Positions 1,550 to 63,650 of a stretch of 64,000 nt of DNA are shown here, piece by piece; the stretch's first letter is position 1, and each line of letters begins with the position of its first letter. Below the pieces are notes generated by a model. That model ran no database searches. It saw nothing but the letters and a program-made list of their open reading frames with translations, and was not told the origin of the DNA. This DNA is from a phage. Location: the sequence record PQ536907.1, one strand, 5' to 3'. Position numbers and translations under genes: made by a program.

Positions 1550-3643
1550 TTATCCTTGAACGAACTTGTAAGGCATGTTTGTAATATCTATGCAAGACGC
1601 AATAATTCCAAGAGATGATTCTACTTTCTGTTTAACGTTTGATGAAACAAATGATGCAAAGTCAACTCTGTCTTCTACTTCAATATCACCTGTCATTGCA
1701 ACTACTTCACCGGTTTCCATTAAATGGTCTCCGTCATAGATTACCGATTCGGTGAGCTCTTCCGTAGTCATAACTTCAGCTTGAATGAGTTTTGTATTAT
1801 TAGATGTTGTTCCGTCATTATTAGAAGCATCAGTTATTTTATTAACTTTGACCATCAATCCACGCGGTAGAATAACTTCAGCTTCTGTTGCTATTCCGAG
1901 ACTTCCTGGATATACAACATTAACTTTATGAGCTCCATCAATTGCCCATCCTATTTGAACTTTAACGTATTCAGGATTTTCTTTATACGCTCTTATTTCG
2001 TTTGGATTAATAGTTATTCCTTCTTCATTTTTATCAACTGTCAATTCATTACGAGCTTCTGGTTCTAAAAGACCAATACCAGCATGTGTAATTCCAAAAC
2101 GCCCAAAAATGATAGGAGTTAAAGAAGTAGATACAAAATTTCTGAAATAGAACACTTTATTTTTAACTAGCGCTTCGTATATAGGAGCAGTCATACTTTG
2201 AGCACGATAAACTGTAATGCCTTCCGGTATGCGGTCACCATTTTCAAAAGCTGAATCTAAATTATTTATAGCAGATTCAATTTCTTTTTCACTCATTACA
2301 TCATATCGTTCTGGATTGTAACGACCTAAAAGAAGATTATTGATGTCAGTATATCCTGAACCACAATACTCTCTAATGCCGCGCTTTTGTGATGGAGTAT
2401 ATTTAGAACCATCACGGGCAATAGTAATATCAATCATTGGACCTGCACCAATTCCAGAAAAACTATAAATCATTCTTTTGAGGAATTTAGTTTTTGCTGC
2501 ATTCCAGGCATTTTTAGTTATTTCTTCCCAGACTTCATCTGGCTGCCCTTTACGAGTTTTATTATGTTTATCAAGCCAATTATCTTTATATTCTTCAAAG
2601 AGTTGATTAACAGCTGCTGCGTATTTCTCTAAACATTTTATTGAAGTAGTTGGTTCATTTTTAATCGCATTAAGAATTACATCTTTAATTTTTTCAGAAA
2701 CTTCATTAACCTCACTTTTTGAAAAGAATTTATAGTCATAATGAAGTTCATCTGCAGTTCCTTCAGCAATAATTTTTGCTGCCTTAGTTTTAGAAGCTAA
2801 TGAATTAATTCCAATTTTCATTTCTTCTGCTTCGGGAATTAAAGGTGCAGTAGCTGGTTTATTAAAATTAGCTGCTGTAGATTCATACTTCTGGAATAAT
2901 TCACTTTCAAATCTAGAAGATTCCAATGACTGGCTTTGTGCAATTGCTCTACGGGAAATTTTAACTTTAACGATTACAGCTTGGTCAGAACGTTTATCAT
3001 TTTCTTGTGCAATAGATGCTGCAATTGCCTCATTTTTGGTTACTTGGGCTCCAGTATCTTTATTGATATAAACATCACCGACTTTCGATTCAACTTTAGT
3101 AAAGAGCTCGGTACTAATTTCCGGAACTCCTGGAATGTCTTCTAGTGATACATTTTTACGATGTATAAGAATATATGCATACTTTTTATCGTAATCCCAG
3201 AGTTCCTTAAGAAGGACGTATCTGCCACCTGAACGACTACGGATAAGTCTATCAGCAATAACTTGAATTTGTCGAGCTTGACCAGCGGTTTTAGACTTAA
3301 GAATACGAAGCATACAAGCATCAATTTTATATTGACGCATTGTTTGCATTGCAACAGTAAAAACTGAATTGATATAATTAATTGGGCTTGGACCAAGACC
3401 TTTTAATTTAGCAATTGAACCTTTAGCAGTTAATGTAAAAGGAACGATATGCATCATTTTATCGCCCATTTTTAAATCGCGATTAGTATCACCTCCAGAT
3501 GTATACGTGCATAAACGAAAGCCTGGTTGTTCAATTGCATCATCAACATGAACTGAAAAAATTTGTGGTATTTTCTTCTTTGGATTTAAGTTTGTAATCG
3601 GAAGAGTAGTATCTTCGTCAAATAATTCTGTAATGAGTTCCAT
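1550..3643 (-). CDS. alt: Alt, packaged RNA polymerase ADP-ribosyltransferase
   Basis: 698-codon ORF (start taken at 2nd Met, MELITELFDEDTTLPITNL...), matches recalled T4 Alt; R / STS / E motifs (VYRAQS, FVSTSL, EAEVILP). Confidence 0.9.
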   Translation of the reverse strand: MELITELFDEDTTLPITNLNPKKKIPQIFSVHVDDAIEQPGFRLCTYTSGGDTNRDLKMGDKMMHIVPFTLTAKGSIAKLKGLGPSPINYINSVFTVAMQTMRQYKIDACMLRILKSKTAGQARQIQVIADRLIRSRSGGRYVLLKELWDYDKKYAYILIHRKNVSLEDIPGVPEISTELFTKVESKVGDVYINKDTGAQVTKNEAIAASIAQENDKRSDQAVIVKVKISRRAIAQSQSLESSRFESELFQKYESTAANFNKPATAPLIPEAEEMKIGINSLASKTKAAKIIAEGTADELHYDYKFFSKSEVNEVSEKIKDVILNAIKNEPTTSIKCLEKYAAAVNQLFEEYKDNWLDKHNKTRKGQPDEVWEEITKNAWNAAKTKFLKRMIYSFSGIGAGPMIDITIARDGSKYTPSQKRGIREYCGSGYTDINNLLLGRYNPERYDVMSEKEIESAINNLDSAFENGDRIPEGITVYRAQSMTAPIYEALVKNKVFYFRNFVSTSLTPIIFGRFGITHAGIGLLEPEARNELTVDKNEEGITINPNEIRAYKENPEYVKVQIGWAIDGAHKVNVVYPGSLGIATEAEVILPRGLMVKVNKITDASNNDGTTSNNTKLIQAEVMTTEELTESVIYDGDHLMETGEVVAMTGDIEVEDRVDFASFVSSNVKQKVESSLGIIASCIDITNMPYKFVQG

Positions 3644-14813: not shown

Positions 14814-16401
<1,588 letters not shown>

Positions 16402-16428
16402 AATAAAATGGGCCTTGCGGCCCACTCC

Positions 16429-17607
16429 TTAAAAGTATTTTTTAAAACTCATCATAACTTTATCATCAACATCATTATCAATCTGCGCTACAAGGTAAGA
16501 TGACAGTTCTACTTCTTGCGGCGCGGATTGAACATTATCAGAATTAAGGTATTCACGAATCCAAGGATATGGATGTTTAACCGGAGCATCGGTAATTGGG
16601 CATGGAAGACCACACTGTTTCATACGAGATACAGTTAAGTAATCAATAAAGCTCCACATGCTATTTGTATTTAATCCAGGAACATCGCCATTTTTAAATA
16701 AATGAACTGCCCAATCTTTTTCTTGGCGGTTAACTTCCATGAAAATATCAACTGCTTCTTGTTCACACTCTTTGGCAATTTTAACCCATTCATCACCATC
16801 CGTGCCAAGTTGAAGTTGACGAATAATATATTGTGTACCTTTAAGATGAAGCTGCTCATCACGTGCAATGAACTTCATAATCTTGGCATTACCTTCCATG
16901 ATTTCCATGTTCTTATGGAAGTTAAAGGTACATGCGAAAGATACATAAAAACGAATAGCTTCCAATGCGTTGATTACGTGTAGGCAGAGGTAAAGAGAGC
17001 GCATTAGTTCACGTTTCCAATACATTTCATGCTCTATGGCATCTTTAATATCATCTTCGTCTGCATTAATTTCTTTTTGGTATTCGATATCAGCTTTAGC
17101 GTTTTCCCAATAACGAGTTTTAATCAGAACATCATCATAATAGCGTCCAATAGATTCGGCTCGTTTCATGATTGCTTCATCTAATACAATCTCATCAAAT
17201 ACCTTTGACGGATCAGTATAAAGATTTCGCATGATATGTGTATATGAACGACTGTGAATAGTTTCACTAAAAGTCCATGTAGCAACCCATGTATCAAGAC
17301 TTGGGTCTGAAATTAACGACATAAGTACAGCAGACGGTGCACGACCCTGAATGCTATCTAGAAGTGATTGATACTTCAGGTTATTAGTAAAAATATCTTG
17401 CTGATATTGAGGAAGCTTGTTAAATTGCGCAGCATCCATCATTAAGTTTACTTCTTCAGGACGCCAGAAAAATGACAACTGCTTTTCGGTTAAATCTTCA
17501 AAAACTTTATGACGTTGAATATCATAACGCGCAATACCAAGGCCTGAACCAAAAAACATAGGTTCTTTTAAAACATCAACTGGATTTGTATTAAAAACTG
17601 TGCTCAT
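16429..17607 (-). CDS. nrdB: ribonucleotide reductase small subunit (uninterrupted)
   Basis: 392-aa continuous ORF with diiron/tyrosyl radical protein features; no intron. Confidence 0.95.
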   Translation of the reverse strand: MSTVFNTNPVDVLKEPMFFGSGLGIARYDIQRHKVFEDLTEKQLSFFWRPEEVNLMMDAAQFNKLPQYQQDIFTNNLKYQSLLDSIQGRAPSAVLMSLISDPSLDTWVATWTFSETIHSRSYTHIMRNLYTDPSKVFDEIVLDEAIMKRAESIGRYYDDVLIKTRYWENAKADIEYQKEINADEDDIKDAIEHEMYWKRELMRSLYLCLHVINALEAIRFYVSFACTFNFHKNMEIMEGNAKIMKFIARDEQLHLKGTQYIIRQLQLGTDGDEWVKIAKECEQEAVDIFMEVNRQEKDWAVHLFKNGDVPGLNTNSMWSFIDYLTVSRMKQCGLPCPITDAPVKHPYPWIREYLNSDNVQSAPQEVELSSYLVAQIDNDVDDKVMMSFKKYF

Positions 17608-17658
17608 AAATTTTCCACTTAGTTAATAGATAGTGACTCGTCCATGAGTCAAATTATA

Positions 17659-19923
17659 TCATAATTTACAGGATGAACAATCTTCAGCTTTTGGAGTTTC
17701 TATTTCATAATCATCAGTACCAGAACCATCGCGGGTATTATGATAATAGAAATTTTTTCCGCCAAAATACCAAAAATACAAAAGGTCATCAATCATTATT
17801 GACATTGGAACCTTTCCTTTTGGAAAAATCTGCGGGTCATAATATGTATTCGCCGAAGCTGATTGACAAACCCATTTCAGCATAATAGCTACCTGCGTAA
17901 GATAAGGTTTATTACCTTTCTTAGCTAATTTCCATGTATAATCATAGAGGTCTATGTTATGCTCAATATTGGGCACGACTTGATTAAAGGAGCCCTCTTT
18001 TGATTCTTTAACAGAGACTGGTCCACGTGGAGGCTCGATACCGTTTGTACTGTTAGAAACTTGGGAAGATGACTCACATGGCATAAGTGCTGATAATGTG
18101 CTATTACGGATGCCAAAGAGCTTAAGGTCTTCCCGCAGCGACGACCAGTCACAAACGTATTTTGGAGCTGCGATTTGGTCAATCTTTTTATTGTACCAGT
18201 CGATAGGTAATTCGCCTCGAGACCAACGAGTGTCTGAATAATATTCGCAAGGTCCTTTTTCTTTGGCGAGCTTAATGGATGCTTTAATGAGTCCATACTG
18301 TAATCTCTCAAATAGTTCATGTGTTAAATCGTTAGCATCTTCATAAGAAGCAAAGTTACTTGCCAGCCAAGCTGCATAGTTAGTAACACCTACACCAAGG
18401 TTTCGACGCTTTTTAGCTTTTTCTGCTTCAGGAACTGGATATCCTTGGTAATCCAAAAGATTATCAAGAGCACGAACTTGAACTTCTGCCAATTCATTAA
18501 TTTTATCTTGGTCTTGCCAATCGAAGTTATCCAGCACAAATGCAGATAACGTGCACAATCCAATTTCAGCATCGGGGCTATTCACATCATTTGTTGGAAT
18601 AGCAATTTCACAGCACAAGTTACTCTGACGAATAGGTGCCTTTTCACGAATAAATGGAGTATAGTTATTCGTATTATCAATGAACTGTACATAAATCCTT
18701 GCTGTTCCTGAGCGTTCAGTCATGAGCAATTCAAATAGTTCACGGGCTTTAATACGCTTTTTACGAATATTAGGGTCTTTTTCTGCTGCTTCGTATAATT
18801 CACGGAAACGGTCTTGGTCTTTAAAATAAGAATAATAAAGCTCGCCACCCATTTCATGCGGACTGAACAAAGTAATGTAATCGTTCTTTCCGAATCGTTC
18901 CATCATCAAATCATTCAGCTGAACACCATAATCCATATGACGAATGCGGTTTTCTTCTACGCCTTTGTTATTTTTCAAAACGAGAAGATTTTCAACTTCC
19001 AAATGCCAAATAGGATAATAAGCAGTAGCAGCGCCGCCACGAATTCCACCCTGTGAACATGATTTAACTGCAGTCTGAAAATGTTTCCAAAAAGGAATAA
19101 CACCGGTATGGCGTACTTCACCCATGCCAATCTTAGAACCTTCAGCACGAATCATACCAACGTTAATACCAATTCCAGCGCGTTTAGAGATATATTCAAC
19201 AATTGAAGCGGAAGCCTTATTGATAGACTTTAATGAATCACCTGCCTCAATAACAACGCATGAACTAAACTGTCGAGTCGGAGTACGGCAACCAGCCATA
19301 ATAGGAGTTGGCAATGAAATCTGTCGAGTAGATACTGCTTCATAAAAACGGATAACATGTTTTAGTCTATCAACAGGTTCATCTTGATGCAGTGCCATTC
19401 CAATAGTCATAAATGCAAACTGTGGAGTTTCATAAATTTGACCGGTGGTTTTATCTTTAACTAGATATTTTTCTTTTAATTGCATCGCCCCGGAATAAGT
19501 AAATTCCATATCCCGCTCGTGCTTAATTTTTGATTCTAAAAATGTAATTTCTTCTGCTGAATATTTTGACAATAATTCAGGGTCATATTTACCTGCATTT
19601 ACACAATAAGAAATATGGTCAATAAATGAACGCGGTTCATACTGCCCATAAACATGCTTACGAAGAGCGAACATTAGACAACGTGCAGCTACATATTGAT
19701 AATCAGGCTCTTCAACCGAAATAGAATTCGCAGCGGCCTTAATGACAATAGTCTGAATATCATCAGTTGTCATTCCATCACGGAGATAAGATTTAATATT
19801 TTCATATAATTCATAAGGATCTACTGATGTTCCTTCAGCTGCCCAAGATAAAACTTTAATAATTTTTTGTGGGTCAAAGCTCTGAGAAACACCACTACTT
19901 TTGATAACATTGATTAATTGCAT
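17659..19923 (-). CDS. nrdA: ribonucleotide reductase large subunit
   Basis: 754 aa; class Ia RNR catalytic motifs (NLCCEI, C-terminal CSSCKL). Confidence 0.95.
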   Translation of the reverse strand: MQLINVIKSSGVSQSFDPQKIIKVLSWAAEGTSVDPYELYENIKSYLRDGMTTDDIQTIVIKAAANSISVEEPDYQYVAARCLMFALRKHVYGQYEPRSFIDHISYCVNAGKYDPELLSKYSAEEITFLESKIKHERDMEFTYSGAMQLKEKYLVKDKTTGQIYETPQFAFMTIGMALHQDEPVDRLKHVIRFYEAVSTRQISLPTPIMAGCRTPTRQFSSCVVIEAGDSLKSINKASASIVEYISKRAGIGINVGMIRAEGSKIGMGEVRHTGVIPFWKHFQTAVKSCSQGGIRGGAATAYYPIWHLEVENLLVLKNNKGVEENRIRHMDYGVQLNDLMMERFGKNDYITLFSPHEMGGELYYSYFKDQDRFRELYEAAEKDPNIRKKRIKARELFELLMTERSGTARIYVQFIDNTNNYTPFIREKAPIRQSNLCCEIAIPTNDVNSPDAEIGLCTLSAFVLDNFDWQDQDKINELAEVQVRALDNLLDYQGYPVPEAEKAKKRRNLGVGVTNYAAWLASNFASYEDANDLTHELFERLQYGLIKASIKLAKEKGPCEYYSDTRWSRGELPIDWYNKKIDQIAAPKYVCDWSSLREDLKLFGIRNSTLSALMPCESSSQVSNSTNGIEPPRGPVSVKESKEGSFNQVVPNIEHNIDLYDYTWKLAKKGNKPYLTQVAIMLKWVCQSASANTYYDPQIFPKGKVPMSIMIDDLLYFWYFGGKNFYYHNTRDGSGTDDYEIETPKAEDCSSCKL

Positions 19924-61160: not shown

Positions 61161-61418
61161 TTAACCACCTACACCAGGTGTAGGTGTAACAGTCCAAAGA
61201 CCTTCATTAGCAGTGATCCATTCAGTACGCTGATTTTCTTCATATACTGTAGAATATGCTGCTTTTTCAGAAGGGAATGTCTGATAATGAGCACCAGAAA
61301 TTTTGTGAACATCAGAATAAAGAGGGAAAGCTACAGAAATTTCTTTACCCTGAATTGTACCACCATCAACTGCTTGGTCAAATGTTTTAATATTAACATA
61401 ACCGCGAGTACTAGCCAT
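61161..61418 (-). CDS. soc: Soc small outer capsid protein
   Basis: MASTRGYVNIKTFDQ...; matches recalled T4 Soc. Confidence 0.9.
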   Translation of the reverse strand: MASTRGYVNIKTFDQAVDGGTIQGKEISVAFPLYSDVHKISGAHYQTFPSEKAAYSTVYEENQRTEWITANEGLWTVTPTPGVGG

Positions 61419-61434
61419 GTAATTCTCCTTTTAT

Positions 61435-61644
61435 TTAAATTACATGATTATTTATAATAAATTCTCGCGGAACGTTAAAATACCCGATTTTAGTTAATAT
61501 AACAACATCACCGTTAATAATTACCGGAGAATAATCTTCTGGAGCATTAAATTTCCAATGGGCTCTAATATTATATCCATCAGAACCAAATGCTCGAGTA
61601 GCCGGTCTCCCGGCTTTTTGCCACGCGTAGAAATCAAATTTCAT
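61435..61644 (-). CDS. hypothetical protein (69 aa)
   Basis: ORF in soc-56 interval. Confidence 0.45.
   Translation of the reverse strand: MKFDFYAWQKAGRPATRAFGSDGYNIRAHWKFNAPEDYSPVIINGDVVILTKIGYFNVPREFIINNHVI
61449..61456 (-). promoter_or_regulatory. T4 late promoter TATAAATA for soc
   Basis: Minus-strand TATAAATAAT about 30 nt upstream of the soc ATG. Confidence 0.6.
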
Positions 61645-61835
61645 TTTGAATGATCTATAATTAATTTTAAATCTTCTTCACTGACAAAAATTTCGTCAGG
61701 ACCTTCTATAACTTCAACCATACGAAGTTGATTAGTTAAGAGCTCACATACGAGCTCCTTGTTATAATCTTTAAATAGCTGGTCAATACGTTTCTTATGG
61801 GCTTTCTTAAGCTGACGCTTATTTAAACGAGCCAT
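61641..61835 (-). CDS. hypothetical protein (64 aa)
   Basis: ORF in soc-56 interval. Confidence 0.45.
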   Translation of the reverse strand: MARLNKRQLKKAHKKRIDQLFKDYNKELVCELLTNQLRMVEVIEGPDEIFVSEEDLKLIIDHSK

Positions 61836-62353
61836 TAATAACCTCGGTCTTGACGAGCGAAGTTTTCAGCATTTTTCAGGTAATAAAGTTTAAAGATTTC
61901 TTCAGCTGACATTCCAAGAGCAATAAATTTATTCATGAAAAAATGAAATTGGTCAATAAGTTCAAATTTAATTTCAAGCTGATCTTCGGGAGATAAATCT
62001 TGAATTTTCTTGGATTGCATTTCAGAATAACGTTTCTTCCAAGGTTTCCATACAGCAGAAGCTTCTTTTTCGCCATTACTCATACCACCGAGAGAAGTAT
62101 ATAGCTCGCGAGTTTCGTCTGCGATATAATCGTCTTGGTTTCGCAGCCAAGCAAGAACTTCTCCTGCAGTTTCAAGTGAATCAGGATGACGATTTGTTTC
62201 TGGTTTATCATTAGCCAAACGAATCTGTAAATGCCGCTGCATATCAAGCATAACCTGCAGTGGGTCAATATTGTGCATAATATTCTCAGCATATGCACGA
62301 TTTGCTTTATCAACACCTTCGATCAAATGAGCACATTCATTAAAGTAAGCCAT
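61835..62353 (-). CDS. 56: dCTP pyrophosphatase (dCTPase/dUTPase, MazG-like)
   Basis: About 172 aa from internal Met MAYFNECAHLIEGV...; candidate MotA box plus TATAAT upstream. Confidence 0.9.
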   Translation of the reverse strand: MAYFNECAHLIEGVDKANRAYAENIMHNIDPLQVMLDMQRHLQIRLANDKPETNRHPDSLETAGEVLAWLRNQDDYIADETRELYTSLGGMSNGEKEASAVWKPWKKRYSEMQSKKIQDLSPEDQLEIKFELIDQFHFFMNKFIALGMSAEEIFKLYYLKNAENFARQDRGY

Positions 62354-62424
62354 TATTTTTCCTTTCAATTCATGGGTTAGTAGATTAATTATACAATAAA
62401 TATATAAAGCAATAAGGAGGACAT

Positions 62425-62625
62425 ATGGTACAAAAATTAATGGCACTTGTTAATGCCATAAAAGGTAATAAAAAACGTATAGCTTTTACTATTTCTGCTA
62501 TGGTAGGAATTTTACTCTGGAACTTTATTCTATCACCTATTGCAATTGCACATGGTATTAATATTCCAGTAGTTACTATTGATACATTCGTAGATCTAGC
62601 ATTTGCTTTAGTTGGGTTAATTTAA
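62425..62625 (+). CDS. small hydrophobic protein (66 aa) on the opposite strand between 56 and 61
   Basis: Strong SD AAGGAGG 5 nt upstream of ATG; two hydrophobic segments; ORF exactly fills the 56-61 gap; stop overlaps gene 61 stop. Confidence 0.45.
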   Translation: MVQKLMALVNAIKGNKKRIAFTISAMVGILLWNFILSPIAIAHGINIPVVTIDTFVDLAFALVGLI

Positions 62626-63650
62626 ATCTTGGCATATTTAGATAGCCGCATTTTAGCCATCAACCCCTGGGCAATATTATTTTTCATATATTCCATAATT
62701 TGTTCAGGGGTTGCACCTTCCTTTCTAATCATATCATTGACATCTTTTGATTTCCAGGGAGATTTATCCCAAAACATAACCCTTTCTCCTGCATCAACTA
62801 ATTTAGTCATTCGTTTGATAGTGTCAGGGTGACGAGGTTCATTATCTAAAACCCACACTCGTCTATCTTTAAATGGAACAACTTCTAGGTCTAATTGACC
62901 GCCAGTAATGGCTATACCATTTTCAATAAAAAGTGAATCTATAGGTCCTTCTAGAACATATACATCACCATCTTTAACTCGTTCGACTCCATATATTTTT
63001 GTTGCCTCAGGATAAGCTTTAATGGTGATATATTTTTGAGGAGCATCTTTCTTTAATGCACGTCCTTGAAAAGACTCAGCTTTTCCGTTAGCATTATAAA
63101 TTGGAATAACAAGACGAGGCTCAGAAATTTCCTTTTTGTATGTTCCTGGTGCTATGCTATTAACTAATTTAGGCCATTCGGTTGTAAACCAAAGATATTT
63201 CCATTTATCCTTTGGAATACAACGAGCTTTTACATATTTTATAATTGGATGGTCTTCCGCCAGTTTATCTAATCTAACACATGACGGAAGAGATTTAATT
63301 ATTTTCTTCTCAGGTTGTTTAGGAAGTTCTTTAGGTTTTTCTACTGGACGACTTTTACCTTTTTCTTTTCTTATTTCAAAGATATACTCACGATATAAAT
63401 CAGGTTCAAACTCCTTTAAATATATTCCGATTGGTGCATGATAGTTACAGTTATAACAATGAATATTTCCTTCATTATTATCACCATAATACCATCCACG
63501 AGCTTTATTCTGATCGGTTTTTGAATCTCCACAAACAGGGCATCTAAACCGCAATTTAAAAGTTGAACTATTATTTACTTGTGTGAATTTAGGTAAATGA
63601 GCTAATGCACGATACGCAAACTCATTATCAATCCAAGGTATTGATGACAT
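62622..63650 (-). CDS. 61: DNA primase
   Basis: 342 aa; zinc ribbon CPVCGD...CYNC and Toprim region EGPIDSLF; matches recalled T4 gp61. Confidence 0.95.
   Translation of the reverse strand: MSSIPWIDNEFAYRALAHLPKFTQVNNSSTFKLRFRCPVCGDSKTDQNKARGWYYGDNNEGNIHCYNCNYHAPIGIYLKEFEPDLYREYIFEIRKEKGKSRPVEKPKELPKQPEKKIIKSLPSCVRLDKLAEDHPIIKYVKARCIPKDKWKYLWFTTEWPKLVNSIAPGTYKKEISEPRLVIPIYNANGKAESFQGRALKKDAPQKYITIKAYPEATKIYGVERVKDGDVYVLEGPIDSLFIENGIAITGGQLDLEVVPFKDRRVWVLDNEPRHPDTIKRMTKLVDAGERVMFWDKSPWKSKDVNDMIRKEGATPEQIMEYMKNNIAQGLMAKMRLSKYAKI

Follow-up and report, generated by a model that had tools for sequence, protein, structure and literature searches.

The dam-less interval between genes 56 and 61 of a T4-type phage carries dam.1, a conserved and putatively late gene for a predicted membrane protein

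The 64,000-nucleotide stretch of phage DNA analysed here (sequence record PQ536907.1; hereafter the window) is a segment of a Tequatrovirus (T4-type) genome. Its interval between genes 56 and 61 very probably represents an ancestral, empty variable slot that holds the middle promoter of gene 56, a late-promoter motif of the gp55 type followed by a ribosome binding site, and a short plus-strand gene, dam.1, which runs stop-to-stop with gene 61. Comparison of homologous loci at the codon level shows that dam.1 truly encodes a protein and that purifying selection acts on it in at least seven lineages. The layout is an ordinary one, of the T6 type, and hundreds of GenBank records already annotate the ORF; nothing described here is new to the databases.

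The coordinates of the features are listed in Table 1. An earlier note on this DNA, made from its letters, had the start of gene 56 at position 62353 and the stop of gene 61 at position 62622, and both were confirmed by the ORF coordinates and by PHROG matches. The ATG assigned to gene 56 is homologous to the start of T4 gp56 (the mechanically defined ORF reaches a GTG at 62446), and the gene 61 product is near-identical to T4 gp61. The non-coding gap between the two genes (62354..62621) measures 268 bp, where the note had given ~270 bp. The 66-codon ORF that it had placed on the opposite strand behind a strong Shine-Dalgarno (SD) sequence, AAGGAGG, was found as described, with a translation identical to the one quoted; this ORF is dam.1. 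It is convergent with gene 61 and the two stop codons overlap by 4 nt inside the palindrome ATTTAAAT. The genes around dam.1 are all early or middle genes encoded by the minus strand; dam.1 is the only plus-strand gene of this early block and lies on the strand of most late genes. The 71 bp found between the start codons of gene 56 and dam.1 form a compact back-to-back promoter region.

Table 1. Features of the 56-61 interval (window coordinates) and examples of orf186 in other records (coordinates of those records or loci).
Feature	Position	Strand	Basis or remark
Gene 56, dCTPase/dUTPase, 172 aa	61835..62353	-	phrog_173, E 2.4e-44
Gene 56 middle (MotA-type) promoter, putative	62388..62414	-	read from the sequence; homology to T4
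Late-promoter-like motif AATAAATA	62395..62402	+	A(-13) variant of TATAAATA, 22 nt before the dam.1 ATG
dam.1 Shine-Dalgarno, AAGGAGG	62414-62420	+	4 nt before the ATG
dam.1, 66 aa	62425..62625	+	phrog_2024, E 9e-31; homologues; selection tests; AlphaFold2
Inverted repeat ATGGCActtgttaaTGCCAT (ATGGCA-N8-TGCCAT)	62440..62459	.	within codons 6-12 of dam.1
Gene 61, DNA primase, 342 aa	62622..63650	-	phrog_47, E 1e-106
orf186 in L007 (IMGVR_UViG_2974787500_000001)	1841..2401	-	
orf186 in T2 (LC348380.1)	16015..16551		
orf186 in L024	1935..2507		

The same order and orientation of genes, soc - T6ORF029 - soc.2 - 56 - dam.1 - 61, is found in phage T6 (MH550421, 14970..17456), whose DNA is 93.9% identical to that of the window over 2.7 kb. 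Both phages are without dam and without segF, both have the 4-nt stop overlap of dam.1 and gene 61, and the T6 record names the ORF 'Dam.1; dam.1'. T6 differs by an ATT (at about position 16231; L015, 2232..2234) that replaces the ATG start codon of the window, T4 and other phages. Translation of dam.1 in T6 would thus need a rare start codon or the internal Met6, from which the T6 protein is annotated with a length of 61 aa; its SD and promoter motif are intact. T4 (NC_000866, 16270..18963; X01416) resembles the window in genes 56 and 61 and in the middle promoter of gene 56, and its 66-aa dam.1 has 94% identity to the one of the window. This T4 gene is located at 17738..17938, between dam and gene 61, and is unannotated in NC_000866 and AF158101. 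T4 carries in addition ~0.9 kb that comprises dam, a 28-codon remnant of a 186-aa ORF (orf186, see below) and an GATAAATA motif. Because T4 has dam and dam.1 together, the plus-strand ORF is no stand-in for dam, and the earlier suggestion that it fills the place of dam does not hold. The reversed orientation of the small membrane gene, which the note had thought unusual, is not peculiar to this genome either: it is fixed and conserved across the family, and the ORF was found in 709 phage records (tblastn).

On the other side of gene 56, between it and soc (window positions 61435..61835, minus strand), there are two small ORFs of 69 and 64 aa (phrog_5773 and phrog_5782). They are the T6ORF029 and soc.2 of T6; T4 has the homing endonuclease gene segF in their place. 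The soc-56 locus of the window is of the T2/T6 type rather than of the T4 type.

Comparison with NC_000866 agrees with the note in placing T4 dam (16846..17625) between genes 56 and 61, and the note's reading that dam is absent here also stood. A tblastn search of the whole 64-kb window with T4 Dam found no homologue (best E = 3.5). The region from soc to gene 61 (61161-63650) contains, as the note had stated, no Dam-like ORF of the Dam/D12 class, defined by T4 Dam homology and the FxGxG and DPPY motifs, and the three matches to [DNS]PP[YFW] in the window are all located in unrelated ORFs. A Dam homologue was likewise not found in the whole T6 genome (best tblastn E value 0.059, on the wrong strand). 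Work from the 1960s and 70s is reported to have found that T6 induces no DNA adenine methylase. As a separate observation, GATC is the most under-represented 4-base palindrome of the window, with 63 sites versus 212 expected under a second-order Markov model (ratio 0.30); in T6 the numbers are 225 and 575 (ratio 0.39), and the T6 genome and the window are both without dam.

The dam-less state is common. Of the 506 phage records that match the 401-bp dam-less junction to any extent, 323 contain it contiguously, while a T4-type Dam (at least 90% identity) is found in 182 records and the dam.1 ORF in ~503 Tequatrovirus records (tblastn). The dam-less share of Tequatrovirus is ~64%, which makes it the majority state. 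The window phage could still carry dam in another locus, as other T4-related genera do, in the ~100 kb of its genome that extends beyond the 64-kb window and includes the nrdC region. A Dam homologue is encoded between denB and ndd in Klebsiella phage SmallBear (SmallBear_ER8); in RCIP0006 and Krischvirus FL04 it adjoins nrdC and gene 49. In T4_ev240, a single record of Tequatrovirus size, a remote and partial match to Dam is located elsewhere. We nevertheless regard a displaced dam as highly unlikely. The window extends over the rIIB side of the map, where denB-ndd should be included, and has no Dam; T6, whose junction is of the identical type, has none in its whole genome; and the records with T4-type Dam and those with the dam-less junction (182 + 323) sum to about the 503-506 Tequatrovirus records that carry dam.1 or the junction, so that dam and the dam-less junction look mutually exclusive.

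Outside Tequatrovirus the slot is also without dam in Mosigvirus, Gaprivervirus, Karamvirus, Kanagawavirus, Klebsiella phage Potts1 and an S16-like Salmonella phage. These six lineages all keep the plus-strand dam.1 against gene 61, and the Dam homologues of other T4-related genera occupy other loci. The empty slot is therefore most simply taken as ancestral and dam as a mobile accessory gene; it is the outgroup comparison alone that gives this direction, insertion of dam as opposed to its loss. According to this scheme dam would be an accessory cassette present in some Tequatroviruses between the gene 56 promoter and dam.1, with no damage involved, and T6, the window phage and most of their relatives would never have acquired the cassette or would have lost it through recombination.

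The cassette usually comprises a second gene. In 155 of the ~182 dam-plus records (~85%), T2 included, orf186 is encoded by the minus strand directly upstream of dam with a stop/start overlap, while the T4 sequence retains just its last 28 codons (...QNVLVLLSNTYDEELYNSFFAAINERI). The slot is thus found in three allelic forms: empty (T6 and the window), with orf186 and dam (T2), and with dam and a truncated orf186 (T4). The insertion is bounded on the left just past the MotA box of the gene 56 promoter and on the right just before the SD of dam.1. Phage SmallBear carries the orf186-dam pair at another locus (orf186 42% identical, Dam 60% identical). orf186 has weak matches to type II restriction endonucleases (PADLOC REase_II, E 9e-5; Pfam DpnII, E 0.0045, below the family cutoff) and contains an FD...EIK motif. 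It may be a GATC-nuclease partner of the phage Dam.

It was also considered that the dam-less state of the window phage is secondary, an ancestor with orf186 and dam having lost both either through a deletion or in a recombination with a co-infecting phage that had no dam. Such events are plausible in Tequatrovirus genomes, which are mosaic (the best 24-kb matches are only 95-97% identical and come in several pieces); among very close relatives some are dam-plus and others dam-less, and the cassette of T4 itself has undergone a partial internal deletion. Against this origin, neither dam nor orf186 has left a remnant in the window, the junction sequence is as in T6 and, like that of the Gaprivervirus outgroup, places the middle promoter of gene 56 back-to-back with the promoter and SD of dam.1, and the slot is empty in every other lineage examined. 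A secondary loss appears rather unlikely to us, and the ancestrally empty slot is the reading that we prefer.

The length of dam.1 is not sufficient to define it as a gene: in DNA as AT-rich as this, 66 codons can stay open by chance, and antisense ORFs of similar size occur inside gene 61. Its assignment is based on conservation, codon-level selection and the promoter motif. The product matches phrog_2024 over its full length (E 9.1e-31; residues 2-66 versus profile positions 1-65 of 65) and shows no feature that distinguishes it from this family. Homologues from Tequatrovirus are 88-98% identical, those from Mosigvirus 50-56%, from Gaprivervirus 46-51% and from Karamvirus and Kanagawavirus ~30-35%; phage PEi26 also has the gene, unannotated. 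A profile search yielded 114 protein clusters, most of them 57-69 aa long with few shorter fragments, and the clusters with a named source all come from T4-like phages of Enterobacterales. The scan of viral_contigs gave 5 loci, and sequence diversity was therefore taken from the annotated phage collection. Convergence with gene 61 and the 4-nt overlap of the two stops, as seen in the window, are shared by T4, T6, Mosigvirus, Karamvirus, Klebsiella phage Potts1 and the S16-like phage. The dam.1 frame is the sole one of the six that is open in 10/10 lineages examined. Its dN/dS ranges from 0.10 to 0.40 within Tequatrovirus (overall about 0.1-0.5) and its pN/pS from 0.15 to 0.65 in seven comparisons within and between genera, versus ratios of 0.72 and 1.35 for control shifted frames. 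MN01b and Potts1 keep 88% amino-acid identity at a pS of 0.85 (pN/pS 0.15), and the proteins of CkP1 and the S16-like phage are 77% identical with a dN/dS of 0.12. A pN/pS of ~1 was obtained versus the two most distant homologues (Potts1 and CkP1; 22-29% identity), which are too distant to inform. Literature searches (T4 ribosome profiling, 'dam.1' and T4 transcription start maps) returned nothing relevant and no expression, proteomic or genetic support for dam.1.

A second copy of the gene was seen in two Gaprivervirus genomes. In MN01 (L011, 1495..1901) a dam.1 paralogue of the Escherichia-phage type and another of the Klebsiella-phage type stand in tandem; the downstream copy starts 8 nt behind the upstream one and is without a separate promoter motif. 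The second dam.1 copy of VR20 (L010, 1693..1895) reads ATG TGA and looks inactivated.

The signals found upstream of dam.1 suggest that its transcription is late and runs counter to that of the early genes around it. The late-promoter sequence TATAAATA, which spans -13 to -6 from the transcription start, is present as its A(-13) variant, within the spacer of the middle promoter that serves gene 56 on the other strand. Of 50 T4 late sites, 32 are perfect and 9 have A(-13), the commonest variant (Geiduschek and Kassavetis, PMC2988020), and position -13 is poorly conserved in related phages (Nolan et al., PMC1524935). NATAAATA or a version with one mismatch is found at -22 to -30 in 12/13 homologous loci, and GGAGG or GGAG precedes the dam.1 start in the same proportion, the exception being in both cases the second copy of MN01. 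In most lineages the base at -13 is A, G or C and not T; a further mismatch (ATTAAATA) is found in Karamvirus and the S16-like phages, and Klebsiella phage Potts1 has a perfect TATAAATA. In dam-plus genomes the spacer of the gene 56 promoter is without the motif and a separate GATAAATA is found at the right end of the cassette. The presence of a motif at the same distance in DNA that is not homologous between dam-plus and dam-less genomes argues for its function.

ATAAATA is a rare sequence, with 58 occurrences on the two strands of the 168.7-kb T6 genome and 10 on the plus strand of the window, where three of them precede an ATG-initiated ORF with an SD: a 221-aa ORF (32.2 kb), the holin gene t (36.7 kb) and dam.1. 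A perfect TATAAATA located 17-30 nt upstream of soc (85 aa), of the 221-aa ORF and of the 218-aa holin t provided the internal positive controls of the scan. These control sites are at 61455 (minus strand), 32217 and 36721 (plus strand).

In the gene 56 promoter, the -10 element TATAAT is the reverse complement of 62388-62393 and the MotA box TGCTTTA that of 62405-62411; the box is preceded by a T/A-rich segment (TAT, 62412-62414) and separated from the -10 by an 11-nt spacer. The arrangement aligns with T4 P(M)16.53, the mot-box and -10 upstream of 56/69 (annotation of Macdonald and Mosig, X01416), and is presumably functional as a middle promoter. The inverted repeat inside dam.1 is followed on the minus strand by a T-run (TAATTTTTGT), which gives it the appearance of a terminator downstream of gene 61. 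Its significance is doubtful; there is one site where 0.7 are expected by chance, identical in T4 and unconserved in other genera. The scan of the interval for sigma-70 promoters and terminators found no excess over the shuffled expectation.

These features allow to weigh the possibility that dam.1 is a chance open frame in DNA that owes its conservation to something else, for example the 3' end of gene 61 or its terminator, the dam and 56 promoters or the neighbourhood of oriA. The abundance of ORFs of ~66 codons in this DNA, the omission of dam.1 from the T4 reference annotations, the loss of its ATG in T6 and the terminator-like hairpin that it contains would all agree with a chance frame. 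We give this explanation hardly any weight. The frame is uniquely open in lineages that have diverged to 22-50% amino-acid identity, the protein is kept despite saturated synonymous sites and with a pN/pS of 0.15-0.5, below the shifted-frame controls, three of its residues are invariant (W32, N33 and P38), and a strong SD and NATAAATA are found at a fixed distance in non-homologous flanks, while the hairpin is not conserved outside Tequatrovirus.

The prediction for the dam.1 product is a single-pass inner-membrane protein in N-in/C-out orientation, with a basic, cytoplasmic N-terminus and a periplasmic tail of ~23 residues. Its hydropathy maximum spans residues 23-41 (Kyte-Doolittle 19-residue mean of 2.02). 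In the AlphaFold2 model (27-sequence alignment; pLDDT 83) a short helix (2-12) is followed by the basic patch KGNKKR, the membrane helix (16-42), the loop AHGINIPVV and a C-terminal amphipathic helix (52-63), which is too polar for a second membrane span in the Klebsiella, Karamvirus and Kanagawavirus forms. The N-terminal flank of the membrane helix has 5-6 Lys/Arg and the C-terminal flank 0-1 Lys/Arg and 1-2 acidic residues (10/10 lineages), a bias that by the positive-inside rule places the N-terminus in the cytoplasm and the C-terminus outside. Besides the three invariant positions, G44, P48 and G64 are nearly invariant in the alignment and position 53 is always acidic. The window protein has the resulting family signature, W-N-x4-P followed by G-x3-P and an acidic residue (W32, N33, P38, G44, P48 and D53). 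Polar residues in membrane helices are a known basis of helix-helix association. The pairing of the invariant Asn with Trp midway along the helix, together with the Pro, suggests a specific association of this kind, and the Trp-Asn...Pro motif would bind either itself or a larger membrane protein of the phage or the host.

Scans of the ORF and the interval with Pfam, NCBIfam and PADLOC gave no match and the Rfam scan of the interval a chance miRNA match alone. An exhaustive phmmer search against 1.8 billion representative proteins returned, besides family members, only three long repeat proteins (PQQ-propeller-like and SH3-like), which were rejected as spurious: their repeated 'LLWNF...SP.A.G' strings mimic the motif. 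Foldseek against viral structures returned only homologues, one of them automatically named 'Holin', and noise, so that neither these structures nor Pfam, NCBIfam and PADLOC pointed to a function. Enterobacteria encode small bitopic regulatory membrane proteins such as MgrB and AcrZ. Dam.1 resembles these two in its similar size, single membrane helix, positive-inside N-terminus and conserved aromatic and polar helix residues, and differs from them in being phage-encoded and putatively late and in having no sequence similarity to them; the parallel is an analogy and not a family assignment.

A small, putatively late membrane protein could be a holin or an antiholin, that is, a membrane protein of lysis timing. 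Dam.1 has the transmembrane domain that a holin requires (at least one), its invariant polar Asn would suit oligomerisation, and there is the UniProt homologue with the automatic name. The charged C-terminal tail, curated-family match or linkage to endolysin or spanin genes expected of holins was not found for Dam.1. Its C-terminal flank has no Lys/Arg, two Asp and a hydrophobic end (...AFALVGLI), whereas a typical holin tail is charged and cytoplasmic. There is no match to a holin family in Pfam or NCBIfam, the fold search found matches to its own family only, the genes adjoining dam.1 code for a dCTPase and a primase, and the canonical holin gene t, a 218-aa ORF with a perfect TATAAATA, is present at ~36.7 kb in the window. 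We consider it unlikely that dam.1 codes for a holin or antiholin. The description that we retain is a putatively late, small, bitopic inner-membrane protein that would act through another membrane protein or through itself. It might tune lysis timing or lysis inhibition, or take part in membrane-bound morphogenesis; any one of these options is a guess with a small chance of being right. As a speculative mechanism, to which we attach a low probability, late-expressed Dam.1 would bind an envelope protein of the phage or the host via its Trp-Asn/Pro motif and thereby measurably affect lysis timing, lysis inhibition or membrane assembly.

For the biology of T-even phages, the absence of dam means that dam-less members should leave GATC unmethylated, a difference that should be visible in the sensitivity of their DNA to 6mA-dependent or 6mA-blocked nucleases once the cytosine modification is removed. 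The slot between gene 56 and dam.1 offers, for T4-type genomes, a clean natural case of a cassette gained and lost between promoters that stand back-to-back. dam.1 itself is probably a late gene of T4 that is conserved across Tevenvirinae and absent from the T4 reference annotation, and omics work relying on that annotation (NC_000866, AF158101) will miss it.
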